DNA of 64,000 bases from Acidobacteriota bacterium (GTDB lineage: Bacteria > Acidobacteriota > Terriglobia > Terriglobales > Acidobacteriaceae): positions 182,185 through 246,184 of the forward strand of contig JACPYL010000018.1 in NCBI GenBank assembly GCA_016196065.1, in the 5' to 3' direction. The position numbers and the translations under genes were made by a program. Positions 1 to 24,330 of the stretch are shown here, one piece after another. The notes beneath the pieces are model-generated. The model was not told the origin of the DNA. It was given only the letters and a program-made list of their open reading frames with translations, and searched no databases. How positions within the stretch are numbered: the first letter of the stretch is position 1; each line of letters begins with the position of its first letter.

Positions 1-685
1 TCCCATGGCAGAAGGCCAACCAACCACCAAGGTTGCCGATGAGGATGCCGCGCACTTTCTGATCCGAATGGTGCGCAAGTATCCACACGAAGTCACCATC
101 TATGAGGGCGGCCCTATGACGAACCTGGCGCTCGCGACTTCCCTTGATCCGCAGTTCCCCGAGTTAGCGCAGGAACTCGTCTTCATGGGGGGCAGCCTTG
201 CGCCGGTGAGCGACAGTCCCGAATTCGACAACACTCCGCGTCACGAATTCAATTTCTGGTTTGATCCGGAAGCAGCGCAGATCGTATTGCGCGCCCCCTG
301 GAAAAAGATCGTCTGCACACCGACTGATGTTTCCGTAAAGACGCATCTCACATCGGCGCTTGTGAAACAGATCGAGGCGAGCGGCACTCCCCTGGCGAAG
401 TACTTGTCGCGCTTTGCAATGTACAACCCCGGCGCCGACATTATGTGGGACGAACTTGCGGCAGCCGCGTGGATCGATCCGACGATCATCACGAAGAAAG
501 AAACTCGCTTCATGGGCGTCGATCTGGACCACGGGCCCGGATACGGAAATACGCTGACGTGGAGCGACAAAGTCAAACCGGCAATGACCGTGCAGCCAGT
601 GGAGATTCAGGTGGATCTGGACACGGAGAAATTTTACAAAATTTTTGTCAGCCTGATGAGCGCACCCACTCCCAACGCACACTGA
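1..685 (+). CDS. nucleoside hydrolase-like protein (IUNH fold), 5'-truncated by window edge
   Basis: The frame is open to base 1. It aligns colinearly (roughly two thirds identical by eye) with the C-terminal two thirds of the 4602-5690 paralogue. Shared motifs are DEDAAHFLIRMV.KYPH, GGPMTNLALA, HEFNFWFDPEAA and MWDELAAAAWIDP. Confidence 0.85.
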   Translation, partial: PMAEGQPTTKVADEDAAHFLIRMVRKYPHEVTIYEGGPMTNLALATSLDPQFPELAQELVFMGGSLAPVSDSPEFDNTPRHEFNFWFDPEAAQIVLRAPWKKIVCTPTDVSVKTHLTSALVKQIEASGTPLAKYLSRFAMYNPGADIMWDELAAAAWIDPTIITKKETRFMGVDLDHGPGYGNTLTWSDKVKPAMTVQPVEIQVDLDTEKFYKIFVSLMSAPTPNAH

Positions 686-689
686 CGGT

Positions 690-1883
690 TTACGGCTTGT
701 CGGGATGAGCCGCGGGCTGTGGGTCGCGCAGCGCAACTACAAATTGCGGGATTGCCAACCGCTCGCGTTCGGCCTCGGCAGCGGCCATCTTGGACGACAG
801 TTCGTACAACTTCAATTCCTGTTGAGCTTTCCCTTTCTCTCCCGCGCGCCGGTACGCTTGCGCCAATCGATAGTGCGGTTCCTCCATCTGTGGATTCACC
901 TCCGCCGCCCGCTGGAACGCGGCAATCGCCTTGGACGAATCTCCCGCATCTGCGTAGATGATTCCCCGCAACAAATACGCAGGCCCCAGCTTTGGGTCGA
1001 GATGCACAGCGGCGTCCAGGAGGGACGCTACGTGAGTCTTGACTGCTGCATCTGCTGTGCCTTGAGCAGGCTTCCAGAGAGCGGCAGCATAGTAATAGTT
1101 CGCAAGCGCATTCTGCGGGTAGAGGCGGACAAATCGGGCCAGACGGTCGATCACGGCCACGGAGGGGACCACGCCGGCATTTTGCATCTTCGCAAGAAAG
1201 AGGTAGGGCGCCTGATCCACGGGATTCGAATCCGATGCCGCACAAATGCAATCAGTAGCCTTTTCGTAAGACCCGCGCGCATACCATGCGACTCCGAGTC
1301 CAATCAGCATCCGCACTGAATTTGGGAAGAGCCGATTCCCTCTTGTGAAAACTTCGATAGCGGGGTCGTGAGCACGATGTGCCAGAAGTTCTGTTCCCCA
1401 ATCGAAGAGATACGGTTCGGTCGGGCTCAGTTCGGCGGCGCGCTGATATTCGCGGACGGCCTCCAACGGACGCTTCAGTTCTTCTTCAATACCGCCAAGT
1501 TGATGATGTAACGCGGCATTGTTCGAATCGCGCTCGATTGCCTGCCGCAGCGATTTTTCTTCCTGTGCCAGAGCGGCGGCGGAATGAACGCTCTCCGCCT
1601 GCTTGCTGAGTGAGACGGTGTCTTTGGCCAGGGACTCCTTCGTGCGCACCACCGTGTCCGAACCGTGTCCACCGAGATTGGTTGCATCCGCAACCCCGGC
1701 CACCGTGAACTGAGGTTCGTCGTAGAACTGTGGAGACGTCGAGGTGGTCTTGCTTGCCTGTGGAGGGTCTGCCGGCTTTGCCTTCGTGGGCTGACACTGG
1801 GCGTCGACCAAAACCGGTGCCAGCAGCGCCATCAGCGCCACGAAACAATGCATGAGCCGCCACTTCGAATGACTGTTGGGCAC
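690..1883 (-). CDS. exported TPR-repeat protein
   Basis: GTG start followed by a signal-like leader (MPNSHSKWRLMHCFVALMALLAPVLVDAQ). It has repeated TPR-like helices (e.g. AVREYQRAAELSP, AIAAFQRAAEVNP). Convergent with the upstream hydrolase gene. Confidence 0.75.
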   Translation of the reverse strand: MPNSHSKWRLMHCFVALMALLAPVLVDAQCQPTKAKPADPPQASKTTSTSPQFYDEPQFTVAGVADATNLGGHGSDTVVRTKESLAKDTVSLSKQAESVHSAAALAQEEKSLRQAIERDSNNAALHHQLGGIEEELKRPLEAVREYQRAAELSPTEPYLFDWGTELLAHRAHDPAIEVFTRGNRLFPNSVRMLIGLGVAWYARGSYEKATDCICAASDSNPVDQAPYLFLAKMQNAGVVPSVAVIDRLARFVRLYPQNALANYYYAAALWKPAQGTADAAVKTHVASLLDAAVHLDPKLGPAYLLRGIIYADAGDSSKAIAAFQRAAEVNPQMEEPHYRLAQAYRRAGEKGKAQQELKLYELSSKMAAAEAERERLAIPQFVVALRDPQPAAHPDKP

Positions 1884-2075
1884 GATAGGTTAGCGTATCA
1901 AAACGCAGTGAATTCTAGCCTCTCACCGGCTGCGCAGCAAATTCGCAACGAGGCCACGGTCTCCGCCAAGAATCATTTCTTTTGACTTGCGGACGCGTAT
2001 AATCCCGTGACGCCCGTGGGGGCTTCCAGTAAACAGCGCAGCCGCTCGCAAAACAACAATCAGGAGCACGTAGAA

Positions 2076-2250: not shown

Positions 2251-3351
2251 ATGAGGCTGCATATCGCCGCTCTGCTCGCTGCTCTTTCCATATTCGTGCC
2301 CGGTGCGGTTGGCGCACAGCGAATTAAAGTGATCGTCGATCAGGACGCGCGTGGCCCCGCGACCACTGACATGCAGTCAATCCTGATCTTCCTTCAGTCT
2401 GACAAATTTGATGTGCTAGGCGTGACCACGGTCAGCGGCGATCAGTGGGTCAAAGAAGAGACCCGGCGCACGCTACGACTGCTCGAAGTCGCCGGCCGAA
2501 CCGATGCCCCCGTCATTGAAGGCGCGGAATTTCCGCTGCTCAACTCCAAAGAAGAAAGCGAGCGCTGGGAATCCCTGTACGGCAAGTTCCGCTACAAGGG
2601 CTGTTGGAGCGACTTCTCCAACCGGCCTGCCAGCACGCCACCCGCATTTCGCGAAGGGTATCACGAGCCGAACATCGTGCCGCCGCTGGTGGAGGGCGAA
2701 CCCAACGCCAAAGCCCTCAACGAAACTGCGGCGCATTTTATCGTTCGCATGGTCCATCAGTATCCCGGAGAAGTGGTGATATGGGCCGGCGGCCCGCTGA
2801 CCAATGTCGCGCTCGCTTTGCGACTGGATCCGGAAGTGGCAACACTCGCGAAGAGCCTGGTCCTGATGGGAAGCGGTATGTATTCGGACAACGGCGGTAT
2901 CGGAGGCGTGGATGGGCGGCGCGAATTCAACTGGTGGTTTGATCCGGAAGCAGTACGTATCGCCATGCGGGCGCCTTGGAAGAAAATTGTCATCACACCC
3001 ATCGATGTCTCGGTTAAGACAAAACTAGGCGCAGAAATCCGGTCCGCCATTGCGAAGGCCGACACTCCGGTGGCGCGCTACCTTACCGCTTACTCTGTTG
3101 ATAGTTTCATGTGGGACGAGCTTTCCGCGGCGGCGATGGTCGATCCTTCGATCATCACCGGGCAGAAGGAGCTTTACGTCGATATCGACATCGACCACGG
3201 TCCCAGTTACGGACAAACGCTATTTTGGAGTCCGGGCACAGTGCTTCCTCCCTATGAGAGGCTGGCCACCGTGCAGTTCGATGTCGACACTACGAAGTTG
3301 TACGATCTGTACATTAAATTGATGACGCAGCCGCCACGATCCGTAAAATAG
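2251..3351 (+). CDS. exported nucleoside hydrolase-like protein, non-canonical motif class (DQD..GP..TD)
   Basis: GGGAGG SD and a Sec-type leader (MRLHIAALLAALSIFVPGAVGAQ). The N-terminal motif is VIVDQDARGPATTD. Other IUNH motifs are REFNWWFDPEAV and MWDELSAAAMVDP. Confidence 0.85.
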   Translation: MRLHIAALLAALSIFVPGAVGAQRIKVIVDQDARGPATTDMQSILIFLQSDKFDVLGVTTVSGDQWVKEETRRTLRLLEVAGRTDAPVIEGAEFPLLNSKEESERWESLYGKFRYKGCWSDFSNRPASTPPAFREGYHEPNIVPPLVEGEPNAKALNETAAHFIVRMVHQYPGEVVIWAGGPLTNVALALRLDPEVATLAKSLVLMGSGMYSDNGGIGGVDGRREFNWWFDPEAVRIAMRAPWKKIVITPIDVSVKTKLGAEIRSAIAKADTPVARYLTAYSVDSFMWDELSAAAMVDPSIITGQKELYVDIDIDHGPSYGQTLFWSPGTVLPPYERLATVQFDVDTTKLYDLYIKLMTQPPRSVK

Positions 3352-3390: not shown

Positions 3391-4554
3391 ATGGGCGAAC
3401 AACGATGGTCCGGAATGACACGACGGAGATTTGTAACCTCGTCCGCAGCAGTTTTGGCGGCCAGTGGATTCGCCGGTGAACTCAATGCCTTCGGGCAGTC
3501 GACCGCAAGTCGCGGCCCTTTCCGCGTCATTATCGACACCGACCCCGGCGTGGACGACGCGCTCGCCCTGTTGCTGGCCATGCGCTCGCCTGAACTGAAG
3601 ATTGAAGCGATCACTCCGGTGGCAGGCAATGTGCCCCTTGAATTGACGCTGCCCAACGCCCTGCGCCTGGTGGAAATCGCAGGTCGTACGGATATCCCCG
3701 TCGCAGCCGGTGCCCGAATGCCGCTCGTCCGCCGCCTGGTAACCGCGACGTATGCGCATGGCGAAAATGGACTTGGCGGCGCGGTATTTCCCGATCCGAC
3801 GATCAAGCCGGTCGCGGAGCCTGCTGCCGAGTATATTCGCCACATCGTCCGCAAGTATCCGCACGAGGTAACGCTAATCACGCTTGGCCCGCTAACGAAC
3901 ATCGCCACGGCGTTGAACAGCGACAACGAGCTTGCAGGCATGGTTCGCGGTCTCACCATGATGGGCGGTTCGCTATCGGGAGGCAACATCACTCCCGCAG
4001 CGGAGTTCAATATTTACGTAGACCCGGAAGCGGCGCGCATTGTTTTTCAGTCGGGGATTCCGATCACCATGGTCGGCCTCGACGTAACCCGTAAGACGTC
4101 CCTGACGGAGGACCACGTCCGCGTATTGGAAGCTGCACAGAATCCAGTCAGCCAGGCGGCTGGCAAGATCGGCCGCAATGCGATCAATCACAATCGCGAG
4201 CGAGGATTCCTGGTCGGACCCAACATGCATGACTCACTCGCCGTCGCTGCATTCCTCGATCCGACCATTCTGAAGTGGCAGGAATACTATGTCGATGTCG
4301 AGACGACGGGTGAGATGACTTCTGGCGAAACGCTCGGCTATAGTCCCGTTGCAGGCGATTTGAAGCGTAAGCCAGGGACGGAGAAGGACGTGCAAGCTAG
4401 CATGACGATTCGGGGCTCAGCGCCGACTCTTGCCAGCACGAAAACGTCGCCGGTGGTGCGAGACAAGTACGTGCCGAACACCAACGTGGGTGTCGACGTA
4501 GACTCAGCACGATTCTTCGATCTATTAATTGGACGGCTGGCAGGGAAAGCGTAG
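3391..4554 (+). CDS. Tat-exported inosine/uridine-preferring-type nucleoside hydrolase (canonical motif)
   Basis: AAGGAG SD and a twin-arginine leader (MTRRRFVTSSAAVLAASGFAG). It carries the canonical IIDTDPGVDDALAL motif, plus AEFNIYVDPEAA and MHDSLAVAAFLDP. Confidence 0.9.
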   Translation: MGEQRWSGMTRRRFVTSSAAVLAASGFAGELNAFGQSTASRGPFRVIIDTDPGVDDALALLLAMRSPELKIEAITPVAGNVPLELTLPNALRLVEIAGRTDIPVAAGARMPLVRRLVTATYAHGENGLGGAVFPDPTIKPVAEPAAEYIRHIVRKYPHEVTLITLGPLTNIATALNSDNELAGMVRGLTMMGGSLSGGNITPAAEFNIYVDPEAARIVFQSGIPITMVGLDVTRKTSLTEDHVRVLEAAQNPVSQAAGKIGRNAINHNRERGFLVGPNMHDSLAVAAFLDPTILKWQEYYVDVETTGEMTSGETLGYSPVAGDLKRKPGTEKDVQASMTIRGSAPTLASTKTSPVVRDKYVPNTNVGVDVDSARFFDLLIGRLAGKA

Positions 4555-4601: not shown

Positions 4602-5690
4602 GTGAATATGCGATTGGGCCGAATCCGGGTGCTCCTACTTACTGCGTTGCTGACCTCCTGTTTTCTGTCATGGGGACAGGGCAAGCGCAAGATCATCATT
4701 GACCAAGACGCCGCTGGACCAGCCGGCACCGACCTGCAGTCAATTCTCTTGTTGATTCAATCCCCGCAGACTGAAGTGTTGGGCGTGACGGTCGTTACGG
4801 GCGATGGCTGGCTGAAGTCCGAGGTCGCGCACACGTTGCGCCTGCTCGAACTCATCGATCGTACCGATATTCCGGTCGTGCCCGGAGCCGAGTATCCTCT
4901 GGTTCGAACAAAAGCCGATACGGAACTGTGGGAAAAGCGCTATGGCTCCGTCGAGTGGCTGGGCGCATGGACGCCAAGGTTCTACCACCCGCCGGACCAA
5001 CTTGGAGAGATGCCGGAAGGCAAGCCTACCACCAAGCCGTCCGACGAAGATGCCGCGCACTTCCTGATTCGAATGGTGCACAAGTATCCCCACCAGGTGT
5101 CGATCTATGCGGGCGGCCCGATGACGAATCTCGCTCTCGCAATTTCGATTGACCCCGATTTTGCCGGGCTAGCGAAAGAGTTGTTCTTCATGGGTGCAAG
5201 TTTCAATCCGCAAACCGCCGACCCCGAGTTCATCAATAATCCGCGTCACGAATTCAATATCTGGTTCGATCCTGAAGCAGCCCACATCGTTCTGCGTGCG
5301 CCATGGAAGAAGATCATTTGCACGCCGGTGGACATTTCCGTTAAGACGCGCATGACGCAAGCGATGATTGACCGCATCAAGGCCGGTAACTCACCTGCTG
5401 CCCACTACGTCGGCACCTATGCACGCCTGTTTGGAGAATACAACTACTTATGGGATGAGCTTTCAGCGGCGGCGTGGCTAGATCCCAGCCTGATTACGAA
5501 ATCAGAAACCCGCTTCATGGATGTGGACCTAAGTCGCGGCGCGGGTTACGGAAACATGCTGACATGGAGTAAAGAGGCGAAACCCAATCTTGACGTGCAG
5601 CCGGTGGAGATACAGGTGGATCTCGATACCGAAAAGTTCTACACCATGTTTGTGGACATGCTGAAAGCACCGACTCCGCCCAAGAACTAG
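4602..5690 (+). CDS. exported nucleoside hydrolase-like protein, non-canonical motif class
   Basis: GTG start at 4602 (alternative ATG at 4608). The leader is RIRVLLLTALLTSCFLSWGQG. Motifs are IIIDQDAAGPAGTD, HEFNIWFDPEAA and LWDELSAAAWLDP. Confidence 0.85.
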   Translation: MNMRLGRIRVLLLTALLTSCFLSWGQGKRKIIIDQDAAGPAGTDLQSILLLIQSPQTEVLGVTVVTGDGWLKSEVAHTLRLLELIDRTDIPVVPGAEYPLVRTKADTELWEKRYGSVEWLGAWTPRFYHPPDQLGEMPEGKPTTKPSDEDAAHFLIRMVHKYPHQVSIYAGGPMTNLALAISIDPDFAGLAKELFFMGASFNPQTADPEFINNPRHEFNIWFDPEAAHIVLRAPWKKIICTPVDISVKTRMTQAMIDRIKAGNSPAAHYVGTYARLFGEYNYLWDELSAAAWLDPSLITKSETRFMDVDLSRGAGYGNMLTWSKEAKPNLDVQPVEIQVDLDTEKFYTMFVDMLKAPTPPKN

Positions 5691-5717
5691 CGCAGCGTGG
5701 CGCTCGGGCAGAGAACC

Positions 5718-7004
5718 TTAGTGGCCTGGAACTGCGCTCTTGGCCAGCCGTTCGGCTTCACGCTGCTCTGCCGAAGCAAGCGCCGCACGGCCCGTTTGTG
5801 AGTAGACGGCCGCCATCCCGATATGCGGCTCGGGCTCCTGAGGCCTCATTTTCGATGCTTCCTGGAAATAGCGTAATGAATCGGGGTACTGCCCAATCTC
5901 TCCGGCCTTGTACCCCAGTTTAAGGATGGAGAGGAAGAGCAGATCCGAAGTCTCTTGATCCTCTGGATTCAAATCGTGAGCGTGGCGCAGCGTCTGATAG
6001 GCAGGTAAGTCGTCCCCGAGTTTGGCCAGAATCTTCCCGTCTAAAGACACGAGTTGAGACAGATCTGGCCAGCGTGCAACCGCTGGGGCGATCGCGCTCT
6101 TCGCTTCCTCGAAACGCTGCAACTGGTAATATGCCAGCGCGACGTTGAACTGCATCTGCGGCGATTGCGGAGACAGTTCGGCGGCACGCTGAAGCGGCTT
6201 AAGTGCAGCTTCTGGATCTCCATGCTGCCCATAGATCGTACCTAGCGCAGTGAGCTTGTCGGCATTTTCTGGATCGTAGAGTTGCTCGCAGACCGCATGT
6301 GCTTCCTCGCGAGGCCCGTGATCCAGTTTGAGTGCGCAGTCTAATCTCAGTTGACTCTCCGTCGTATCCCGCTGTCGCTGCTCGTTCGACTGCGTCATCA
6401 CTCGCTGCGCTTCGTCTTCTCGTCCTTGTTTGCGATACACCATGCCCAGCTGGTAAGAGACACGAGCATCATGAGGATTAGTGCGGACCGCTTCCGTCAG
6501 CCACTTCTCTGCACCGGCAAGGTCGCCCTGCTTGAAGCAGGCAAAGCCGAGATAGTAAGTCGTATCAGGGAAGGGTGGATCGGCTGCGGCTTTTGTCAGA
6601 TTGTCAATCGCTCCGGTGAAGTTGCGCCCGTCGAGGTCGAGCCGGCCCAGGTAATACAGGACGTTAGGATGATCGCCCGCTTCACGGCGAACGATTTCAA
6701 ACTCTCTGCGAGCCTCCGCCGGTTTATGCAATTCAAACAGGGCCACACCCAGTGGAAAGCGCGCCCGCAAGACCAACTTGGGATCCAGCTTCAAGGCAGC
6801 TTGAAACTCAGCGGCGGCCACGTCGTATCGATCATTCTTGAGCGCGTTGTAGCCCTTGCCAATGTGCGCTTCGGGCGTTTCCTTGGACCTTGGCGAAGCA
6901 GTATGAGAAGCCTGTCCGGTGAGAACAACGGACGAAGCCACGATGGTCAGCAGCAATATACCGCGCAGAATGGGCCTGTTAACGATGTGAAAGCCGGCAA
7001 TCAT
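5718..7004 (-). CDS. TPR-repeat protein with N-terminal membrane anchor/leader
   Basis: The track ORF runs to 7049. I prefer the ATG at 7004 (MIAGFHIVNRPILRGILLLTIVASSVVLTGQ), which lies 4 nt after the upstream stop at 7009-7011. Multiple TPR units are present (AAAEFQAALKLDP, ALKPLQRAAELSP). Confidence 0.75.
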   Translation of the reverse strand: MIAGFHIVNRPILRGILLLTIVASSVVLTGQASHTASPRSKETPEAHIGKGYNALKNDRYDVAAAEFQAALKLDPKLVLRARFPLGVALFELHKPAEARREFEIVRREAGDHPNVLYYLGRLDLDGRNFTGAIDNLTKAAADPPFPDTTYYLGFACFKQGDLAGAEKWLTEAVRTNPHDARVSYQLGMVYRKQGREDEAQRVMTQSNEQRQRDTTESQLRLDCALKLDHGPREEAHAVCEQLYDPENADKLTALGTIYGQHGDPEAALKPLQRAAELSPQSPQMQFNVALAYYQLQRFEEAKSAIAPAVARWPDLSQLVSLDGKILAKLGDDLPAYQTLRHAHDLNPEDQETSDLLFLSILKLGYKAGEIGQYPDSLRYFQEASKMRPQEPEPHIGMAAVYSQTGRAALASAEQREAERLAKSAVPGH

Positions 7005-7008
7005 CGCA

Positions 7009-8322
7009 TCATCTCCGGCCAGCCTTCGCCAAGAGAGCGCTAGCTGCATCCTTACTGGCAGCGACTTCGCCTGCGGTCGCGGTCGTCACGAAATCGGAGA
7101 CTAACTTCTCGCACTGCTCCCTGACCTGGTCATAAGCAGTTGGATCTTGCCCGCGGACGGCGAGCAACTCCTTGAGCCAATGTTTGCCGAAACCGGCGTG
7201 CATGGTTTCGTCAGCCCAGTCGAAATCCATGTCATGCTCGCTGACGGCATCACCATAAGCGTGGAACAGTTGTGCCCGAGCGGGTTTATGGCGGATATTC
7301 TTGGTCTCAAAAAAGTAGAGCATGCCCAAGAAATAGATCGGATCTTCGCCAGAAGCACTTTCGTAGATATAGGTGCCAAGGGGGATCTCGGCGGGATCCA
7401 GGCGCCAGGCCATCAAACGCTCGTAGCCCATGCGGCAATGGCGAGACTCGTCATAGGTCCAACGCGCAGCGTTATGAATCCATTCCCATGGCAGCACGTC
7501 GGCAAACGCGTTCAGCATTGCGCCGCCAGCCTCGATCGCCCAGACTTCATTCAAGTGGCTGATCGCGGATCGCATTTGTAGTCGCATTCCTTCTCCGTAG
7601 GGATAGTTGGAATCGACAATGTCGGGCCAATAAAAGCGGCAGGACAGAAAGCGTGGATCGCGACCGGGCCGGCGAGGCGTAGCGTAAGCCTTCGAGTGCG
7701 ACAGAGGCCCCATCAACGCCGTAGACGCCGACGGCTCAACGCCCACGCCACCGACGGCCGCGAGTCGACTTGCTACTGCATCAGTCCAAACCATGGCGTC
7801 TGCGCGAAGTTCAGGGTTAAGTGAAAGCGCGGATTCCAACCACTCCTCGTATGCCCTGATCTGTTCTGCCTTCTCGGAAAGTGCTAGAGACAAGAAACGG
7901 TGAGTGGGACCATCCGCGATGGAGTCTGACGCCTGAAGATAGCCCTGGTACGCGTTGCGCAACGCGGGCAGCAGTACGTTGCCAATGCTCATCAGAAAGG
8001 CCGGGACAGACGGCGAATCCTTGACCGCGCTGAATAGTTCGATCAACGCATGGTCTGCGCCTTCTTCTTCGAGCAAGCGGCTCGGGAAGCGTAATTCGAA
8101 GACGCGCTCCCGCAGAGCATGTGCAGTCTCGGAGTTTTGCCACACGAAGCGAGCCAAGCCAGTCTTGATTCCGAGCGGGGCCACAACCGGGATCCACGCC
8201 GCCTCGGTGGTCAGCAATGAACGCTCACAGAAGAAGAATCTCTTCAGCAGCTGAGCGGTATCGAACCGCATCCATCGAGCGCGGGGCTGCTCACTGACTA
8301 AGTACTCGGAAGGTTGTGGCAT
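7009..8322 (-). CDS. ferritin-like (di-iron carboxylate type) protein of unknown function
   Basis: 437-aa ORF with three E-x-x-H motifs: NSETAHALRER, DESRHCRMGYE and ADETMHAGFG. It also has isolated conserved-looking Glu residues (FCERSL, NEVWAIEAGG), as expected in a four-helix-bundle di-iron site. No leader. Tightly linked to ribokinase upstream and the TPR gene downstream. Confidence 0.55.
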   Translation of the reverse strand: MPQPSEYLVSEQPRARWMRFDTAQLLKRFFFCERSLLTTEAAWIPVVAPLGIKTGLARFVWQNSETAHALRERVFELRFPSRLLEEEGADHALIELFSAVKDSPSVPAFLMSIGNVLLPALRNAYQGYLQASDSIADGPTHRFLSLALSEKAEQIRAYEEWLESALSLNPELRADAMVWTDAVASRLAAVGGVGVEPSASTALMGPLSHSKAYATPRRPGRDPRFLSCRFYWPDIVDSNYPYGEGMRLQMRSAISHLNEVWAIEAGGAMLNAFADVLPWEWIHNAARWTYDESRHCRMGYERLMAWRLDPAEIPLGTYIYESASGEDPIYFLGMLYFFETKNIRHKPARAQLFHAYGDAVSEHDMDFDWADETMHAGFGKHWLKELLAVRGQDPTAYDQVREQCEKLVSDFVTTATAGEVAASKDAASALLAKAGRR

Positions 8323-17067: not shown

Positions 17068-18138
17068 ATGACAGCCGATCACGACCAACAGCGCGGGATT
17101 GCGCATGACATAGTTCAGCGCGACGTGCGGCGCGACGTTCCCCACGCCGCATCACCGGAGAATGTCATTGCCGATCTGGCCGGGCGTCCCCTGTTTCGCA
17201 ATACCGGAATCCCACTCGACGAACATTGGGTTAAAGACGTACGGGTCAACACCAGCGCGGTCGAACGGCGAGCCCAGTCCCAGGTTGCGCGAAGAACCGT
17301 TAAGAAGGACTGGCAAGCGGCGTGGCTACTGCGTTCGATCACGTGCATGGATCTGACCACGCTCTCCGGGGATGACACTGACGAACGAGTCCGCCGGTTG
17401 TGCGCGAAAGCACGGCAGCCGATTCGGCAGGACCTCGTCGAAAAATTGGGCATCGCAGGACTCGACATCAAAGTCGCGGCTGTGTGCGTGTATCACACTT
17501 TTATTGAAACCGCCCTGCACGCGCTCGAAGGCACGCGCATCCATGTTGCCGCCGTCTCCACGGGATTTCCTGCTGGCCTTTCGCCGCTCGCAGAGCGGGT
17601 CGCGGAAATTCGTCGGTCCGTAGAGGCTGGAGCGCATGAAATTGACGTCGTCATCACGCGGGCCCATGTTTTTGGCGGCCATTGGCAGGCGCTCTACGAC
17701 GAAGTTGCCGCGTTCAAACACGCCTGCGGCACGGCGCACATCAAAGTAATTCTAGGAACGGGCGACCTGTTGACTCTCCGCAATGTTGCGCGAGCCAGCG
17801 TCGTGGCCATGATGGCCGGCGCCGACTTCATCAAGACATCGACCGGCAAAGAGCCGACCAATGCAACCTTACCGGTGGGATTGGTGATGACACGCGCCAT
17901 CCGCGAATACGCGCAACGTACTGGTATGGCCGTCGGCTTCAAGCCAGCGGGCGGCATTCGCACGGCGAAACAGTCTCTCGATTGGCTAGCCATGATGAAG
18001 GAAGAGCTTGGCCTCTCGTGGGTGCGCGCAGAAATGTTTCGTTTTGGTGCGAGCGGATTGCTAGGCGACATCGAGCGGCAACTCGAACATCACGTGACGG
18101 GACGCTACTCGGCCGAGAATCGCCACCCGCTGGCGTAG
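17068..18138 (+). CDS. deoC: deoxyribose-phosphate aldolase, long (eukaryote/DERA-like) form
   Basis: ATG at 17068 is preferred over the TTG at 16882. Long colinear matches to human DERA as I remember it include ARRTVKKDWQAAWLL, MDLTTLSGDDT, STGFPAG, EIDVVI, MMAGADFIKTSTGKE (Schiff-base Lys), VGFKPAGGIR and HHVTGRY. Confidence 0.9.
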   Translation: MTADHDQQRGIAHDIVQRDVRRDVPHAASPENVIADLAGRPLFRNTGIPLDEHWVKDVRVNTSAVERRAQSQVARRTVKKDWQAAWLLRSITCMDLTTLSGDDTDERVRRLCAKARQPIRQDLVEKLGIAGLDIKVAAVCVYHTFIETALHALEGTRIHVAAVSTGFPAGLSPLAERVAEIRRSVEAGAHEIDVVITRAHVFGGHWQALYDEVAAFKHACGTAHIKVILGTGDLLTLRNVARASVVAMMAGADFIKTSTGKEPTNATLPVGLVMTRAIREYAQRTGMAVGFKPAGGIRTAKQSLDWLAMMKEELGLSWVRAEMFRFGASGLLGDIERQLEHHVTGRYSAENRHPLA

Positions 18139-18164: not shown

Positions 18165-20549
18165 ATGAGCATTGCCGAAAAATTTGCAACCATGGAATAC
18201 GGTCCCGCCCCCGAGGATCCGAAAGAAGCCGTTGCCTGGCTCGATCGACACGGACGGCGCTTCGCGCACTTCATCAACGGCGCATGGCAGAAACCGTCGG
18301 CAGATGGATACTTCGACACCTTCGATCCTTCGAACGGAGAGAAACTCGCCTCCCTGGCGCAGGGATCCAGTGCAGACGTGGACGCCGCGGTGAAAGCTGC
18401 ACGAGCAGCGTCCCCGAAATGGCAAGCGCTTACGCCCCACATTCGGGCGCGCTATTTGTACGCAATTGCGCGACAGATTCAGAAACATTCGCGGCTGTTC
18501 GCTGTCCTCGAAACAATGGATAACGGCAAAACGATCCGCGAAAGCCGCGACATCGACATTCCATTGGTTGCTCGACATTTCTATCATCACGCCGGTTGGG
18601 CACAGTTGCTGGAGCAGGAGTTCCCTGACTACGCTGCCTGTGGAGTCATCGGACAGATCATTCCCTGGAATTTCCCTCTGCTGATGCTGGCATGGAAAAT
18701 TGCGCCCGCTTTGGCTACCGGGAACACGGTCGTGTTGAAACCTGCTGAATTCACAACTCTCACCGCACTGTTGTTCGCCGAGGTCTGCCAGGAAGTTGGA
18801 CTGCCAGCGGGAGTGGTGAACATCGTGACGGGCGACGGTTCCACCGGCGAAGCGCTCGTGAAGCATCCCGATCTCGACAAGATCGCATTCACGGGTTCGA
18901 CCGAAGTGGGACGCGCGATCCGCTCGGCCACCGCCTCCAGCCACAAACGACTGTCCCTCGAGTTGGGAGGCAAGTCTCCCTTCATTATTTTCGAGGACGC
19001 GGACCTCGACGGCGCAGTCGAAGGACTGGTCGATGGAATCTGGTTCAACCAAGGACAAGTCTGTTGCGCTGGATCGCGCCTGCTCGTGCAAGAGAGTGTC
19101 GCCGAAACGCTAATCTCCAAAGTGCGAGACCGTATGAGCACTTTGCGGCTCGGATCGCCACTCGACAAAGGCATCGACATCGGCCCGATCGTCGCTCGGG
19201 TACAACTGGAACGAATTCGCAAACTGGTTGACCAGGGAGTCGCTGAAGGAGCGACTTGCTGGCAACCGCCAACCATATTGCCGGAGGGCGGTTTTTACTA
19301 TCCGCCGACTTTGCTGAGTAATGTCCATCCCACTTCGATCGTCGCGCAGCAGGAGATCTTCGGACCGGTTTTAGCGACGATGACCTTCCGCACTCCACGA
19401 GAAGCGGTAGAACTGGCGAACAACACGGTCTACGGACTGGCCGCCTGCGTCTGGAGTGAAAGTATTAACGTGGCATTGCAGACAGCGGCACAGTTGAAAG
19501 CCGGCGTCGTGTGGGTGAATTGCACCAACCTGTTTGACGCAGCCTGCGGATTTGGAGGCTATCGAGAAAGCGGTTACGGACGCGAAGGTGGGCGCGAGGG
19601 CTTGCTCGAATACCTGGAACCGAAGTGGTTCAAGAGTACCCCGGTTCTGCCAGTGGCGAAGACTCCGGATGCGACTGCTCACGAGAAGGCAGCTGACACT
19701 AGCGTTCCCGCCATTGATCGCACGGTGAAACTCTATATCGGTGGCAAGCAGGCTCGTCCGGATTCCGGATACAGCATGCAGGTTCGCGGCACGGACGGAA
19801 GCCTGTTGGGAGAAGCTCCGCTCGGCAACCGGAAAGATATCCGCAACGCTGTGGAAGCCGCCCGCAAAGCTGACGGTTGGGCAAAGACGACGGCCCACAA
19901 TCGCGCCCAGGTGCTCTACTACAGCGCCGAGAATCTCTCGCAAAGACGCGATGAGATTGCGCGTCGTCTCGCGGCGGTAGTCGGAGAAAAACAAGCCAAC
20001 GCAGAAGTCACCCTCGGCATTGAGCGCATCTTCTCCTATGCTGCATGGGCGGACAAATTCGATGGCGCCGTGCACAATCCGCCGTTTCGCAATATTGCCA
20101 TCGCCATGCATGAGGCGATTGGAACGATTGGCGTGATCTGTCCGAGCGAAGCGCCTCTGCTGGGATTTCTTTCCTTAGTTATGCCGGCACTCGCAGTGGG
20201 GAACACTGTGATCGCGATCCCGTCAGAACGGTATCCGCTGATCACTGGCGATCTTTACCAGCTTTTCGACACCAGCGATCTGCCGGGCGGCGCGGTCAAC
20301 ATCGTGACTGGCTATGCGTCGCAACTCTTAAAGACAATCGCGGAGCATGATGACGTCGACGCGATCTGGTGCTTTGGCGACGAGACACAGGCGGCGGCAG
20401 CTAAATCGGCTTCCATCGGGAACCTCAAACAAGTATTCACCAACGAGGGCCGCGCCATCGACTGGTTCAATCCCAAACTGGCCGAAGGACGCTGGTTTCT
20501 CGAGCACGCGACCCAGGTAAAAAACATCTGGGTTCCCTACGGCGAATAG
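18165..20549 (+). CDS. two-domain aldehyde dehydrogenase (complete ALDH + C-terminal truncated ALDH-like domain)
   Basis: True start is taken at ATG 18165 (MSIAEKFATMEYGP). The track ORF start at 17682 overlaps deoC out of frame. Domain 1 has IIPWNFPLLM, ELGGKSP (catalytic Glu) and NQGQVCCAGSR (catalytic Cys). From about nt 19716 a second ALDH-like N-terminal/NAD-binding half begins (VICPSEAPLLGF..ALAVGNTVIAIPSE..GGAVNIVTG). It ends before any catalytic Cys region. Confidence 0.85.
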   Translation: MSIAEKFATMEYGPAPEDPKEAVAWLDRHGRRFAHFINGAWQKPSADGYFDTFDPSNGEKLASLAQGSSADVDAAVKAARAASPKWQALTPHIRARYLYAIARQIQKHSRLFAVLETMDNGKTIRESRDIDIPLVARHFYHHAGWAQLLEQEFPDYAACGVIGQIIPWNFPLLMLAWKIAPALATGNTVVLKPAEFTTLTALLFAEVCQEVGLPAGVVNIVTGDGSTGEALVKHPDLDKIAFTGSTEVGRAIRSATASSHKRLSLELGGKSPFIIFEDADLDGAVEGLVDGIWFNQGQVCCAGSRLLVQESVAETLISKVRDRMSTLRLGSPLDKGIDIGPIVARVQLERIRKLVDQGVAEGATCWQPPTILPEGGFYYPPTLLSNVHPTSIVAQQEIFGPVLATMTFRTPREAVELANNTVYGLAACVWSESINVALQTAAQLKAGVVWVNCTNLFDAACGFGGYRESGYGREGGREGLLEYLEPKWFKSTPVLPVAKTPDATAHEKAADTSVPAIDRTVKLYIGGKQARPDSGYSMQVRGTDGSLLGEAPLGNRKDIRNAVEAARKADGWAKTTAHNRAQVLYYSAENLSQRRDEIARRLAAVVGEKQANAEVTLGIERIFSYAAWADKFDGAVHNPPFRNIAIAMHEAIGTIGVICPSEAPLLGFLSLVMPALAVGNTVIAIPSERYPLITGDLYQLFDTSDLPGGAVNIVTGYASQLLKTIAEHDDVDAIWCFGDETQAAAAKSASIGNLKQVFTNEGRAIDWFNPKLAEGRWFLEHATQVKNIWVPYGE

Positions 20550-20554
20550 CGCAC

Positions 20555-21235
20555 ATGAAGGCTACCGTCACTCCCCGGGTAAAGATCTGCTGTATCAGCA
20601 GCAAGGAAGAAGCGGCTCTGGCCATCGAGTGCGGCGCCTCCGCGCTGGGATTGGTCTCTCACATGCCAAGCGGGCCGGGCGTCATCACGGATCAGCAAAT
20701 TGCAGAGATTGCCGCCACGGTTCCTCCCCCGATTGCAACGTTCCTGCTGACCTCGCGACAGAGCATCAGTGAAATCATCTCTCAGCAACAATTCTGCCGC
20801 ACCAACTGCATTCAAATCTGCGACCACCTGACCGGCGGCACCCATCGAGAACTTAAAGATGCTTTGCCGGGAATTTCCATCATTCAGGTTGTTCATGTCG
20901 TGGGCCCCGAATCGGTGGAGGAAGCCTGTACCGCTGCGCGCTACGCCGACGCGATCTTGCTTGACTCAGGCAATCAGAAACTTGCAGTGAAAGAGCTCGG
21001 CGGCACCGGGAAGACCCATGACTGGAAATTCAGCAAGATGATTCGAGAGCGAATCGATGTCCCGCTTTTCCTTGCTGGTGGCCTAACGCCCGAGAACGTT
21101 GCCCAGGCGATTCAGGAGGTTGGACCATTCGGACTGGACCTCTGTTCCAGCGTGCGAAGCAGCGGCAAACTCGACGAGACGAAGCTTCGGCGCTTCTTCG
21201 CTGCGGTGCAGGGCGTCACCGCCCCGGCCTGTTGA
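20555..21235 (+). CDS. phosphoribosylanthranilate-isomerase (TrpF)-family protein
   Basis: VKICCISS corresponds to the TrpF KICGIT motif (catalytic Cys retained). LLDSG....LGGTGKTHDW corresponds to LDs..GGtGk.fdW. FLAGGLTPENV is also present. It is not next to other trp genes here. Confidence 0.7.
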   Translation: MKATVTPRVKICCISSKEEAALAIECGASALGLVSHMPSGPGVITDQQIAEIAATVPPPIATFLLTSRQSISEIISQQQFCRTNCIQICDHLTGGTHRELKDALPGISIIQVVHVVGPESVEEACTAARYADAILLDSGNQKLAVKELGGTGKTHDWKFSKMIRERIDVPLFLAGGLTPENVAQAIQEVGPFGLDLCSSVRSSGKLDETKLRRFFAAVQGVTAPAC

Positions 21236-21291: not shown

Positions 21292-22227
21292 ATGGCAAAG
21301 CGTCCGCGTATTGCAGTGGTAGGAAGTGCCAACGTCGACCTGACTACGTTCACCGACCAGTTCCCCAAGCCGGGAGAAACAATCTTTGGCCAGAAATTTG
21401 ATATGGGATTCGGTGGCAAGGGCGCCAATCAGGCCGTCGCCGCCCGACTCTGTGGCTCCGATGTTTTCATGGTCGCACGCGTTGGTGATGACCTATTCGG
21501 ACCCGCAACGATCAAGAATTTTGAAAAATTAGGTATCGATGCGTCACAGGTAAAACAGGTCGCCGGCCTGTCAAGCGGTGTGGCTCCGATCTTTGTTGAT
21601 CCCGCCGGACAGAATCGGATTTTGGTCGTCAAAGGAGCCAACGACGCCCTAAAACCGGCGGACGTGGATTCCGCAGCCGACGTCCTGAAGAGCGCCGACT
21701 GCATCGTCCTGCAATTTGAAATACCACTGGAAACTGTCTACTACACCATCAAGTTCGCGCGTAAGAATGGCATTCGCTGCCTCCTCAATCCAGCCCCAGC
21801 GCAACCCATCGACGTCAAAGCGATCGCCGATCTTGATTACTTTGTCCCGAACGAAAGCGAAGCGGAAACGATTACCGGGATGCCGGTGAAGAATGTGGAC
21901 GACGCGAAGAAGTGCGCGCAGAAGCTTCTGGCAGGTGGAATCCGCCGCGTCATTATCACGCTCGGCGCAAATGGCTCGCTGCTCGCCGGAAGTGAAGGCA
22001 TGGAACACGTACCTGCATTCACGATGAAAAGCGTGGACAGCACTGGAGCGGGAGACGCGTTTATTGGCAGCTTCGCCACCTTTCTTGGTGAAGGCCTGCC
22101 CGAGCGGGAGGCCGTCCGGCGCGCCAACCTGTACGCAGGACTATCCACGACTGGTGTCGGCACGCAAAAGTCGTTTTACGACCGGGCGCGCTTCGACCAG
22201 GAGTGGTCAGCAAGATCGAAGTCCTGA
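21292..22227 (+). CDS. rbsK: PfkB-family ribokinase (second copy; could be a deoxyribokinase)
   Basis: Motifs are GGKGANQAVAAARLG, NESEAE and DSTGAGDAFIGSFA. Length is 311 aa. Confidence 0.85.
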   Translation: MAKRPRIAVVGSANVDLTTFTDQFPKPGETIFGQKFDMGFGGKGANQAVAARLCGSDVFMVARVGDDLFGPATIKNFEKLGIDASQVKQVAGLSSGVAPIFVDPAGQNRILVVKGANDALKPADVDSAADVLKSADCIVLQFEIPLETVYYTIKFARKNGIRCLLNPAPAQPIDVKAIADLDYFVPNESEAETITGMPVKNVDDAKKCAQKLLAGGIRRVIITLGANGSLLAGSEGMEHVPAFTMKSVDSTGAGDAFIGSFATFLGEGLPEREAVRRANLYAGLSTTGVGTQKSFYDRARFDQEWSARSKS

Positions 22228-22239
22228 GGCACGCATTCC

Positions 22240-23358
22240 ATGAAACGGGTTGCCATAGCGTTTTTTCTCACCGCTGTCTTATGTCTGCCCACGTACGTCT
22301 TCGCACAGAAACAAATAAAAATCATTGCTGATCAAGATAGTGCGGGTCCGGAGGGAACGAATTTTCTTTCCTTGCTCATGTTGTTGCGAGCGCCGCAAGT
22401 GGACCTGCTTGGCATCACCACGGTAAGCGGAGATCAATGGATGGAGCCTGCCACAGTTTTTGCGTTGTGGGCTACGGAGATTACCGGACGAGCCGACGTA
22501 CCTGTAGTCAAGGGCGCGGAGCGTCCGCTAGTGAATAGTCAGCGCGAGCAGGAAGCCCGTGAACATCTTTTCGGCTCGTACCTTGCCTGGCACGGCTCGT
22601 TTAATCCTGACGCTCCACCGCCGAAGGAGACATGGGCGCCTCCCGGCGGCTATCCAAAGGTGAAGCCGAAACCCGGGCGGGCTGCGGACTTCCTCATCGA
22701 TACGATCCGTGCTCATCCTGGCGAAGTGGTCCTCTACTGCGCCGGTCCGCTCACTAACATCGCGCTCGCCGTTTCCATGGACCACGACATTGTTCCGCTC
22801 ACCAAGGCAATTTACATCATGGGCGGAAGCAGTGCCGGCGGCTCGGAGCTGAACTGGTGGTGGGATCCGGAAGCAGCCGCCATCGTGCTTCGCCAGCCTT
22901 GGAAAGAAATTGTGATCACGCCCTTTGAGGCGGGTGAACAGATTTGGTCGAGCGAGAATTTGATGAAGAGAGTAGTAAGTGCCGGTGGCCCTCTTGCAAA
23001 TCACGTCAAGCAGGTTTATCTCGACCGTGAACCGCCGCCCGGAACCTCCATGTGGTCGATGATGTGGGACGAACTCACAGTGGCGTCGATCCTCGATCCC
23101 TCAGTGATAGAAAAGTCCGAGACGATGTACCTTGACGTGGATATCACGCATGGGCCGAAGTATGGACACACGGTAGTGTGGAAGCCCTCGGATGAAGTTC
23201 CACAATTCTTCCTCGCCTACAGCGGGCCACGTCCCGTCGATAAGGAAAAATGGAAGGCTCATCTGACGCCGCCCGAGCAATTGCATCCAGCTAGCGTGCA
23301 AATGAAAGTGGACACACAGAAGTTTGAGAAGATCTTTGTAAACTTAATGAGCCACTAG
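22240..23358 (+). CDS. exported nucleoside hydrolase-like protein, most divergent N-terminal motif (DQD..GP..TN)
   Basis: Leader MKRVAIAFFLTAVLCLPTYVFAQ. Motifs are IIADQDSAGPEGTN (nt 22330-22362), SELNWWWDPEAA and MWDELTVASILDP. Confidence 0.8.
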   Translation: MKRVAIAFFLTAVLCLPTYVFAQKQIKIIADQDSAGPEGTNFLSLLMLLRAPQVDLLGITTVSGDQWMEPATVFALWATEITGRADVPVVKGAERPLVNSQREQEAREHLFGSYLAWHGSFNPDAPPPKETWAPPGGYPKVKPKPGRAADFLIDTIRAHPGEVVLYCAGPLTNIALAVSMDHDIVPLTKAIYIMGGSSAGGSELNWWWDPEAAAIVLRQPWKEIVITPFEAGEQIWSSENLMKRVVSAGGPLANHVKQVYLDREPPPGTSMWSMMWDELTVASILDPSVIEKSETMYLDVDITHGPKYGHTVVWKPSDEVPQFFLAYSGPRPVDKEKWKAHLTPPEQLHPASVQMKVDTQKFEKIFVNLMSH

Positions 23359-23364
23359 GTAGAT

Positions 23365-24330
23365 ATGCAGCGCGCCTTCCTGATCGATACCGACACTGCT
23401 TCTGACGACGCCGTTGCAATCATCATGGCATTGCGTGCGCCCGATGTCCGCGTCGTCGCGATCACAACCGTTGCCGGTAACGTCGACGTTCAGCAGTCCA
23501 CCCGCAATGCGCTCTACACAGCGGAACTTTGCGGCTCCGATGTGCCTGTATATACAGGCGCGGACAAACCGTTGCTTCGCCGTTACGAAAATGCAACCTG
23601 GTTCCACGGACGCGACGGCCTGGGCGATCACGGATATCCTCCCCCGCGTCGGGCCGCGGGTAAATTGCATGCGGTCGATGCCATCATCGAAGCGGTCGAA
23701 GCGAATCCTGGGATTGTGATTGTGACGCTCGCGCCTCTCACGAATCTCGCGCTGGCGGTCGCAAAGAGACCAGACATTGTTTCGAAAGTAGGACGCTGCG
23801 TCGTGATGGGCGGTGCCCCGTGTTGCGAAGGAAATGTGACGCCGGCGGCGGAATACAACATCTGGGTCGATCCTGAAGCTGCGCGAATCGTGATGTTGAC
23901 TGGCCTGCCCATCGAACTCATCGGTTGGCATTTGAGTCGCGGAGATTCCGTGGCCGGGGAAGACGACATCGCGCAGATTCAGAAACTAAATACGCCCCTT
24001 GCGCACTTTGCGATCGAATCCAACAGTCACGCACGTACCGCTTACAAGATACAAACAGGCGAAGACGGGATTTCACTGCCTGATCCCGTCGCGATGTGTA
24101 TTGCGCTTGATCCGACTGTTGGAACCGAATGGAGCGACCACTACGTAGAGGTCGAGACGCAAAGCGAACTCACACGCGGTATGACCGTGGTCGATCGTCT
24201 CGACAAGGCCAACGACGAGCGCAATCAGTCCGTCTGGGCCGACGCGGTACGCAATGCTCCCAAGGCCAAGGTGTGCTGGACCATCGACACAAAACTCTGG
24301 AAGAACGCTCTGCTTTCGGCGCTCCGCTGA
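23365..24330 (+). CDS. cytoplasmic nucleoside hydrolase (canonical IUNH motif, no leader)
   Basis: It starts directly with MQRAFLIDTDTASDDAVAI. Other motifs are AEYNIWVDPEAA and LPDPVAMCIALDP. It lies 6 nt after the preceding exported paralogue. Confidence 0.9.
   Translation: MQRAFLIDTDTASDDAVAIIMALRAPDVRVVAITTVAGNVDVQQSTRNALYTAELCGSDVPVYTGADKPLLRRYENATWFHGRDGLGDHGYPPPRRAAGKLHAVDAIIEAVEANPGIVIVTLAPLTNLALAVAKRPDIVSKVGRCVVMGGAPCCEGNVTPAAEYNIWVDPEAARIVMLTGLPIELIGWHLSRGDSVAGEDDIAQIQKLNTPLAHFAIESNSHARTAYKIQTGEDGISLPDPVAMCIALDPTVGTEWSDHYVEVETQSELTRGMTVVDRLDKANDERNQSVWADAVRNAPKAKVCWTIDTKLWKNALLSALR

Follow-up and report, generated by a model that had tools for sequence, protein, structure and literature searches.

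A probable SusD-less nucleoside utilisation locus with eight nucleoside hydrolase genes in an uncultured Terriglobales acidobacterium

The closest described system is the rus locus of Bacteroides thetaiotaomicron (BT2802-09), which encodes SusC/D proteins, a nucleoside hydrolase (RusNH), two ribokinases and a permease. RusNH has been reported as apparently periplasmic and carries the canonical DXDXXXDD motif, and the enzyme content of rus-like polysaccharide utilisation loci (PULs) is highly variable across Bacteroidetes. The present analysis concerns an island of nucleoside hydrolase genes carried by a stretch of 64,000 nucleotides, hereafter the window, from an Acidobacteriota bacterium of the Terriglobales (NCBI GenBank assembly GCA_016196065.1, contig JACPYL010000018.1, positions 182,185 to 246,184). 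The island probably serves this uncultured acidobacterium for the utilisation of nucleosides (N-ribosides), and it has a PUL-like build with no SusD; apparently, it is a larger and uncharacterised counterpart of the Bacteroides rus locus. A preliminary description of the window had interpreted it as a riboside-scavenging island, and the core of this interpretation is supported, with amendments, by Pfam, by leader conservation and by synteny.

The Pfam family PF01156 (IU_nuc_hydro) matches all seven window ORFs that had been attributed to the IUNH nucleoside hydrolases, with 139–318 bits and E values of 3e-40 to 1.5e-94 (cut-off 34.2). The number of paralogues had been put at seven and is now eight, as the island continues upstream of the window on a Logan contig (L001) that is identical to the window except for 1 mismatch in 12,658 nt. 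This contig reaches 4.2 kb 5' of the window; in addition to the complete first gene, it encodes an extra IUNH protein and, before it, an outer-membrane barrel protein. PF01156 is also assigned to the extra gene and to the full-length first gene. The presence of seven IUNH genes within 24 kb, against three in the 4.6 Mb of Escherichia coli K-12, is far beyond chance. An assembly artefact was ruled out: the same DNA is found in two independent Logan assemblies and in the NCBI contig, itself part of a metagenome-assembled genome (MAG) with a 100% identical NH4 protein (named below), and the gene order recurs in other MAGs. The copies were named NH0 to NH7, following map order:

NH0, L001 2692–3789 (outside the window): divergent, predicted exported IUNH protein; overlaps NH1 by 4 bp.
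NH1, 2–685, plus strand (C-terminal 227 aa; full 360-aa gene at L001 3786–4868): divergent, predicted exported IUNH protein; PF01156 139 bits.
NH2, 2251–3351, plus strand: divergent IUNH protein with a putative Sec leader; PF01156 175 bits.
NH3, 3391–4554, plus strand: canonical RihA-like IUNH protein with a putative twin-arginine leader; PF01156 318 bits.
NH4, 4608–5690, plus strand (ORF 4602–5690): divergent IUNH protein with a putative Sec leader; PF01156 197 bits.
NH5, 15759–16826, minus strand (ORF 15759–16847): canonical IUNH protein with a putative Sec leader; PF01156 308 bits.
NH6, 22240–23358, plus strand: divergent IUNH protein with a putative Sec leader; PF01156 184 bits.
NH7, 23365–24330, plus strand: canonical leaderless IUNH protein; PF01156 300 bits, domain from residue 5.

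None of these copies passes the cut-offs of the NCBIfam equivalogs (RihA, RihB, RihC, UriH): the best, NH3, reaches 285 bits for RihA against a cut-off of 433, and the divergent copies obtain 58–105 bits against cut-offs of 382–459.

The eight copies were aligned with RihA, RihB and RihC from E. coli (NC_000913). The phylogeny proposed in the preliminary description was approximated by this alignment and an identity matrix, in which canonical and divergent copies separate, and by a ranking of PDB hits. The canonical copies are NH3, NH5 and NH7, with the DTDxxxDD motif, GN39 and the His82 'HG' loop; they obtain 300–318 Pfam bits, share 32–44% identity with RihA/B/C, and are the only copies displaying the DXDXXXDD fingerprint, which NH0, NH1, NH2, NH4 and NH6 do not match. 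NH3 (DTDPGVDD and MHD) is closest to RihA (44% identity, E 2.8e-69), NH5 carries DTDPGTDD and MYD, with Tyr at the leaving-group position, and the closest PDB relatives of NH7 are IunH-1/2 of S. solfataricus. We infer that these three copies are ordinary ribonucleoside hydrolases.

The five other copies constitute a separate subfamily, whose members are 38–64% identical to each other, 21–34% identical to the canonical copies and only 21–28% identical to RihA/B/C. In this subfamily, a 3-residue insertion after the DxD leads to the pattern [DN]-x-D-x-x-G-P-x-x-[ST]-[DN], the ribose-contacting third Asp (Asp14) is replaced by Ser or Thr, Asn39 by Asp, and the His82 loop by a Trp-rich insertion of 25–35 residues; the loop ahead of Glu166 is altered and, in all five orthogroups, His239 is replaced by Trp ('WDE'). 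Furthermore, position 15, a Ca2+ ligand, is Asn instead of Asp in NH1 and NH6. The NH1 signature is I-N-E-D-F-S-G-P-G-G-S-N, followed by GD and WDE, and the first Asp is mostly Asn among its orthologues; NH6 displays ADQDSAGPEGTN, GD and WDE, and the NH2 motif VDQDARGPATTD is kept in 36 of 37 orthologues. On the other hand, Asp10, the GPxTN loop, Glu166/Asn168 (ExN) and Asp242 are invariant in the eight copies and RihA/B/C. The motifs announced for every ORF in the preliminary description thus stand in part: E-x-N...DPEA and the distal Asp occur in all copies, but the N-terminal Asp cluster is canonical only in the ORFs starting at 3391, 15759 and 23365. The orthogroup-specific signatures are near-invariant, with 19–82 species per group (the S-N signature of NH1 and the T-N signature of NH6 are fixed in 34 and 3 orthologues, respectively). 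As orthologues are 74–90% identical and paralogues far less so (38–64%), the duplications are ancient and every copy is constrained separately.

The AF2 model of NH4 (pLDDT 78.6, pTM 0.81) retrieves solved nucleoside hydrolases with Foldseek at E values of 1e-20 to 1e-23, with target-normalised TM scores of 0.79–0.85 and identities of 20–27%; the structures nearest to it are those of group I and plant enzymes. The confidence of the model is low in two loops specific to the subfamily (about 30 and 10 aa). Our searches found no solved or characterised close relative of the divergent exported subfamily, which may be covered by uncharacterised 'nuc_hydro' subgroups of CDD. The substrates of the five divergent copies should not be assumed to be ordinary nucleosides; these copies most likely allow a wider range of ribosides to be used, including purine, 2'-modified or other unusual ones. 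A more ambitious proposal, which we put forward as a tentative one with the balance of probability against it, is that they form a new specificity class of the IUNH fold, marked by the 3-residue insertion, an Asp14/Asn39 carboxylate swap and Trp for His239, which could act on 2'-deoxy-, 2'-O-methyl- or modified (purine) nucleosides that are poor substrates of canonical Ca2+/2'-OH-dependent enzymes; such copies would, together with a SusD-less transporter and TPR and FG-GAP/ASPIC proteins, belong to a phylum-wide acidobacterial locus feeding deoxyribose to DeoC.

Leaders were scored with a hydrophobicity/charge heuristic on the N-termini of orthologues of each island gene, drawn from 80 loci, each from another GTDB species. 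Sec-type leaders ending right before the first beta-strand were found in 19/19 orthologues of NH0, 33/34 of NH1, 37/37 of NH2, 81/82 of NH4 and 3/3 of NH6, and in these leaders a hydrophobic core follows a basic n-region and precedes an AxA-like end. NH5 also has a Sec-type leader. The pattern [ST]-R-R-x-F-V occurs in 45 of the 47 NH3 orthologues ahead of a less hydrophobic core, as expected for twin-arginine (Tat) export. NH7 begins at the DxD strand and is leaderless, like RihA/B/C, which had been described as leaderless enzymes and which, in the alignment, start directly at this strand. No leader was detected in the negative controls (0/17 for each of the two ribokinases of the island and for its DUF455 protein). 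The leaders vary in sequence and are fixed in position, as expected of real signal peptides. Seven of the eight copies are thus predicted to be exported, and the set originally described (four Sec leaders, one Tat leader and none in the ORF at 23365) agrees with the heuristic. In a diderm organism, such leaders imply delivery at least to the periplasm; the cleavage proposed to occur outside the cytoplasm would most likely take place in the periplasm, following active import. The leader of NH4 in the window (4608–4700) includes a lipobox-like L-T-S-C; a lipoprotein anchoring of NH4 was not adopted, as this pattern is found in just 18 of 82 orthologues.

The array is headed by an outer-membrane transporter and interleaved with genes of putative accessory proteins:

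Transporter, L001 1–2586 (outside the window): candidate TonB-dependent transporter with a PF25183 barrel, at the head of the array.
TPRa, 690–1883, minus strand: TPR protein (TPR families), predicted exported; leader in 12/15 orthologues.
TPRb, 5718–7004, minus strand: second TPR protein (TPR families); found in 28/56 loci.
FG-GAP/ASPIC protein, 10798–14700, plus strand: FG-GAP/UnbV_ASPIC/AhpC-TSA/TPR protein of 1,300 aa (Pfam) with a Tat-like leader (GRRNFLI).

The PF25183 barrel scores 658–742 bits, with 658 bits in the L001 gene. A full-length orthologue (L006) carries a signal peptide, a CarboxypepD_reg domain (83 bits), a Plug domain (27 bits for a cut-off of 23.9, when scanned alone) and an 838-position barrel. 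The transporter had no match in a PDB sequence search, and the assignment of TonB-dependence therefore relies on the Pfam architecture, i.e. Plug, CarboxypepD_reg and barrel. From its domains, this architecture is of the SusC type, without any SusD gene: the gene next to the transporter is NH0, 105 bp away, and no SusD family match was found among the island proteins, in which only generic TPR proteins were seen. The 105-bp spacer (L001 2586–2691) harbours a GC-rich stem of 11 bp, GGGCAGACTGA...TCAGTCTGCCC, ahead of a T-rich tail; this stem may be a partial terminator tuning the transporter:enzyme expression ratio.

At least 523 GTDB species encode relatives of NH4, and the best 80 relatives all come from uncultured Terriglobales/Terriglobia MAGs. 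NH4 was used as the anchor gene of a synteny analysis, whose counts refer to 56 loci from distinct species with full 10-kb flanks. The transporter is present in 46 of these 56 loci, TPRa and the FG-GAP/ASPIC protein in 47 each and a ribokinase in 29, and the number of IUNH orthogroups per locus varies from 1 to 6. The FG-GAP/ASPIC protein is a conserved candidate accessory component. The full form of the locus reads transporter-NH0-NH1-TPRa(-)-NH2-NH3-NH4. In a compact form, DeoC-aldehyde dehydrogenase-ribokinase 2-transporter-TPRa(-)-NH4-FG-GAP/ASPIC(-)-CN-hydrolase-NCS1, the transporter/hydrolase module occupies the exact place of NH6-NH7 in the window. As modules shuffle inside one neighbourhood, a functional coupling between them can be argued.

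The conservation across Acidobacteriota, suggested for verification in the preliminary description, extends beyond these Terriglobales loci to a Vicinamibacteria-type contig (L091). The latter carries, in a rearranged order, a DMT permease, two PfkB kinases, three exported IUNH, an FG-GAP/ASPIC protein (10234–11808), a TPR protein and a CarboxypepD_reg/PF25183 transporter, the exported TPR-like protein being again adjacent to the transporter; one of the IUNH genes displays an NH6-type signature (ADQDSAGPxGTN/GD/MWDE) and another an NH4-type signature. More broadly, 8,025 IUNH-like clusters were found among 1.84 billion cluster representatives, and 264 of them match NH4 with E ≤1e-30. Leaders were detected in 39 of 47 full-length representatives (32–53% identity), all of which bear automatic names only. 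On another contig, an exported IUNH gene lies with the genes of a nucleoside phosphorylase, a NUP purine-nucleoside permease and a Plug/TonB_dep_Rec receptor of the classic kind. Other distant members of this clade are encoded beside an adenine deaminase, a transthyretin-like protein and NCS1 in one case, and beside adenosine and cytidine deaminases in another. A homologue from a Novosphingobium megaplasmid (42% identity) has a leader and the motifs DNDFLGPGQSN, GD and WDE, and its gene precedes that of a permease of the xanthine/uracil family. These independent associations with nucleoside/nucleobase permeases and deaminases favour nucleosides as substrates of the divergent clade. In GCA_000526255.1 (L089), which encodes a 47%-identical exported IUNH, a DarT-Macro (DarTG) toxin-antitoxin pair and a HEPN/nucleotidyltransferase pair are found a few kb upstream of the IUNH gene (5523–7032); both are probably unrelated neighbours.

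The other genes of the island mainly belong to pentose and base metabolism:

DUF455 protein, 7009–8322, minus strand: ferritin-like, predicted cytoplasmic (leader 0/17); PF04305 39 bits.
Ribokinase 1, 8387–9361, minus strand: PfkB family; TIGR02152 303.4 bits (cut-off 299.65).
Exported conserved protein of 399 aa, 9430–10629, minus strand: putative Sec leader in 8/9 orthologues.
DMT-superfamily permease, 14732–15703, minus strand (start refined): ureide-permease/GRP-like; Ureide_permease 80 bits.
DeoC, deoxyribose-phosphate aldolase, 17068–18138, plus strand (start set from orthologue conservation): TIGR00126 160 bits (cut-off 117).
Aldehyde dehydrogenase, 18165–20549, plus strand: presumed acetaldehyde sink; Aldedh 646 bits.
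PRAI/TrpF-like isomerase, 20555–21235, plus strand: PF00697; 130 bits for an NCBIfam TrpF cut-off of 215.
Ribokinase 2, 21292–22227, plus strand: TIGR02152 340 bits (cut-off 299.65).
CN-hydrolase, 24373–25257, plus strand: candidate beta-ureidopropionase; PF00795 218 bits, below the aguB cut-off.
NCS1 nucleobase:cation symporter, 25391–26800, plus strand: TIGR00800 385 bits (cut-off 353).
Dihydropyrimidinase, 28306–29697, plus strand: TIGR02033 646 bits (cut-off 393).
CoA-acylating (methyl)malonate-semialdehyde dehydrogenase, 31012–32571, minus strand: TIGR01722 566 bits (cut-off 448).

Most of the assignments made from the letters alone hold for these genes: the two PfkB ribokinases and the DERA-type DeoC pass their curated cut-offs, and the Aldedh match confirms the aldehyde dehydrogenase. 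Likewise, the base-catabolic cluster proposed at 24.4–32.6 kb is recovered, with NCS1, dihydropyrimidinase and the malonate-semialdehyde dehydrogenase above curated cut-offs and the CN-hydrolase below. DeoC and PfkB pentose kinases are both present, as expected for a deoxyribose pathway, the role of the kinases on deoxyribose being presumed. The aldehyde dehydrogenase (about 794 aa) includes a complete catalytic domain followed by an extra N-terminal-half domain of the same family (130 bits), and orthologues conserve its full length, extra half domain included. The TrpF-like gene, located between the aldehyde dehydrogenase gene and that of ribokinase 2, was found in this genome only among the loci examined; the occurrence of a putative Amadori-type N-ribosylamine isomerase within a riboside island is suggestive.

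The permease had been described as a DMT sugar permease. The DMT family is retained but the sugar specificity is unproven, because the Sugar_transport match is marginal (26.0 bits for a cut-off of 26.3) and Ureide_permease is the best match; this protein may import pentose or base. Its gene is directly 3' of NH4 in several loci, and the permease of L091 belongs to the same family.

Several observations concern the base-catabolic cluster and its surroundings. The CN-hydrolase is linked to NCS1 in 14 loci. In the window, the 133-bp gap between both genes contains an 82-nt perfect-register hairpin (25283–25364; 41-nt arms, 80% complementary, no spacer), with no second copy in the window and no Rfam match; it may act as an attenuator or terminator, or represent a REP-like element. 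A luciferase-like monooxygenase gene lies within the cluster (27210–28211, minus strand); the pyrimidine monooxygenase RutA is a member of the luciferase-like monooxygenase superfamily. None of the genes seen in the cluster encodes a dihydropyrimidine dehydrogenase.

The block 7009–10629 (minus strand), which groups the exported 399-aa protein, ribokinase 1 and DUF455 along with TPRb, recurs in about 15 loci, at times inverted relative to the hydrolase array. DUF455 adjoins ribokinase 1 in 15 loci; no PDB relative of this protein was found and the literature search gave nothing useful on its role. The 399-aa protein had been presented as an exported NADAR-like protein, NADARs being proteins that split N-ribosyl bonds. 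Its export is supported by its conserved leader, whereas the NADAR identity was dropped. Indeed, it has no Pfam match, including to PF08719 at E up to 10, no PDB sequence match with phmmer, and Foldseek finds no PDB match with E below 1 for its AF2 model (pLDDT 71, falling below 50 in the motif). What is left is a short motif, LSNWYP..G..LYGATYDSTEHFWQAVKF, which aligns with the YbiA core FSNF..I.V.GKTWPTSEHYFQAQKF over 49 columns with 31% identity and an hhalign probability of 5.7%. Compared to NADAR/YbiA, the protein is also 2.5 times the length of a NADAR domain, and exported.

Altogether, these data suggest the following scheme. Nucleosides and related N-ribosides of dead biomass would be pumped over the outer membrane in a TonB-energised manner, and a periplasmic battery of specialised hydrolases would split them into pentose and base. 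The products would enter the cytoplasm via the DMT permease and the NCS1 permease. The two ribokinases would phosphorylate ribose and probably deoxyribose, deoxyribose-5-phosphate being disposed of by DeoC and the aldehyde dehydrogenase. Pyrimidine bases would be degraded reductively by dihydropyrimidinase, CN-hydrolase and malonate-semialdehyde dehydrogenase, and NH7 would deal with the nucleosides that reach the cytoplasm intact.

Several points weigh against this scheme. The organism is known from metagenomes alone, and the activity and localisation of its hydrolases are predicted from sequence; the leader calls come from a home-made heuristic and not from SignalP or TatP. None of the five divergent copies has the DXDXXXDD motif, the His82 loop or His239, and NH1 and NH6 also have Asn at Ca2+ ligand 15; some of the divergent copies may be weak, differently specific or inactive. 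The link with DeoC is conjectural because IUNH enzymes normally need the 2'-OH and the island has no obvious producer of free deoxyribose; free deoxyribose would arise if some divergent copies accept 2'-deoxynucleosides. The DMT permease is nearer to ureide permeases than to sugar porters, so that pentose import has no assigned gene. As nucleosides fit through porins, the transporter may carry something larger. Lastly, general scans of the island proteins found no nuclease, phosphatase or regulator gene.

Among the alternative explanations, the one that survives best, although we hold it to be rather unlikely, proposes that the divergent exported copies are not nucleosidases but act on conjugates that are larger than nucleosides or of another kind, from which they would free ribose or a different furanose. 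Candidates include compounds derived from NAD or ADP-ribose, secondary metabolites bearing ribose, cofactors of the cobalamin or queuosine kind, and glycans with ribofuranose. This proposal would account for the presence of a TonB-dependent transporter, since the usual substrates of such transporters are too bulky or too rare to be taken up through porins, and of the accessory TPR and FG-GAP proteins. It would also fit the replacement of ribose-contacting Asp14, Asn160, the His82 loop and His239, the two low-confidence loops of the subfamily, and the NADAR-core-like motif of the exported 399-aa protein, the NADAR identity of which is itself not confirmed. Moreover, rus-like loci have reportedly come to target many different substrates that contain ribose. 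However, relatives of the divergent clade repeatedly adjoin nucleoside/nucleobase permeases and base deaminases, base-catabolic genes and NCS1 lie in the same conserved neighbourhood, and the Ca2+ site and Glu166/Asn168 are kept.

Less probable still is the proposal that some divergent copies, especially NH1 and NH6, are catalytically dead and act as periplasmic riboside binders or sensors replacing SusD/SusE-like proteins. The substitution of Asn for the bidentate Ca2+ ligand Asp15, fixed as the S-N and T-N signatures, and the lack of any SusD or solute-binding protein among the island genes are in its favour, but Asp10, Asp242, the GPxTN loop and Glu166/Asn168 are invariant in both copies, and the side chain of Asn is still able to ligate Ca2+. 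A protective or signalling battery, which would inactivate nucleoside antibiotics of soil actinomycetes or plant or microbial riboside signals such as cytokinin ribosides, appears very improbable. Numerous specialised paralogues in a soil organism would suit it, and some secreted nucleoside-hydrolase-like proteins, such as the HopQ1/XopQ effectors, have non-nutritional roles; against it stand the repeated tight linkage to ribokinases, DeoC, permeases and base catabolism and the lack of resistance or efflux genes in the island. Finally, several ORFs have GTG or alternative starts and the leaders were called without a dedicated signal-peptide predictor, but the idea that these leaders are start-codon artefacts of plain cytoplasmic Rih-type enzymes is scarcely credible, given 20–45 leader residues always located ahead of the first beta-strand in orthologues of dozens of species, the RR motif of NH3 orthologues, and the lack of leader in the cytoplasmic controls and in NH7, which, like RihA/B/C, starts at the DxD strand. 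Nucleoside utilisation through active import and periplasmic hydrolysis remains the favoured interpretation of the island.

The search for regulatory sequences was negative. No riboswitch or other known RNA was detected in the whole window with Rfam at gathering thresholds; promoter and terminator scans from 14 to 27.5 kb gave numbers of sites not above those of shuffled sequence, and the search for a shared operator in five intergenic regions returned chance 9-mers only. Beyond the island, an unrelated-looking carbohydrate block (33971–45260), which also includes a 7-bladed lactonase and an amidohydrolase, carries the following genes:

GH2 beta-mannosidase-like enzyme, 36786–39470.
LacI-family regulator, 39521–40597, located 13 kb from the island.
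CBM96 protein, 41349–43163, minus strand.
OmpR-C/TPR (BTAD-like) regulator, 43368–45260.

LacI regulators have been described as the second commonest type of regulator of rus-like loci.

Nucleic acids constitute a large, fast-cycling necromass pool of organic C, N and P, and few soil bacteria are as abundant, or as rarely cultured, as the Terriglobales. If the proposed function is true, dedicated import and periplasmic hydrolysis would define a concrete nutritional niche for Terriglobales, and the locus would provide marker genes for metatranscriptomic or stable-isotope studies. If the divergent copies do form a new specificity class, this could be a major soil route of nucleic-acid necromass turnover. 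The analysis also exposes a widespread clade of the IUNH fold (about 260 clusters at 50% identity), mostly leader-bearing, of which no member is characterised or solved; its re-wired active site could offer new riboside specificities for nucleoside biocatalysis. Furthermore, the PUL concept, i.e. a TonB-dependent transporter associated with periplasmic enzymes, would be extended to a non-glycan substrate outside Bacteroidota, and the TPR and FG-GAP/ASPIC proteins are flagged as candidate accessory components.

Compared with known enzymes, NH3 shares with RihA/B/C the full set of motifs (DXDXXXDD, GN39, HG82, ExN and His239-Asp240). The canonical copies differ from RihA/B/C by the presence of Tyr in NH5 and Pro in NH7 at position 239, and by the Tat leader of NH3 and the Sec leader of NH5, whereas the Rih enzymes are leaderless. 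Trp260 and Asp40 are the hallmarks of the stacking-based purine mechanism of the IAG-NH enzymes. The five divergent copies resemble the group II IAG-NH of trypanosomes by the Trp before the Ca-binding Asp (WDE) and by the Asp in place of Asn39. However, the sequence match is far poorer with IAG-NH (E 1.6e-8) than with group I enzymes (E 6.7e-24), no residue was assigned as the counterpart of Trp83, and neither the 3-residue insertion in the Asp motif nor the replacement of Asp14 by Ser/Thr is a feature of IAG-NH. The resemblance is probably convergent.

The literature search on exported bacterial nucleoside hydrolases, Acidobacteria and TonB retrieved only the Bacteroides rus work and nothing on this exported subfamily. 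It gave no report of an exported multi-paralogue array in Acidobacteria, in agreement with the preliminary description, which knew of none, and did not reveal the island to be an operon type already characterised there. The locus is conserved and widespread in an important uncultured group but conceptually not unprecedented. Indeed, rus had been proposed as the nearest precedent, and this is borne out, including for the periplasmic hydrolase: in both loci, the genes of a TonB-dependent transporter and of apparently periplasmic nucleoside hydrolysis are clustered with two ribokinase genes and one for an inner-membrane permease. They differ in several respects. In the acidobacterial locus, no SusD, RusGH or RusR was found, the barrel is of the acidobacterial PF25183 type, and eight IUNH copies, of which five are non-canonical, stand against a single canonical RusNH. 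The acidobacterial locus also adds DeoC, the aldehyde dehydrogenase, pyrimidine-base catabolism and the TPR and FG-GAP/ASPIC proteins, and it belongs to a different phylum (Acidobacteriota). By analogy, it would work like rus, without being a member of the rus family of loci.

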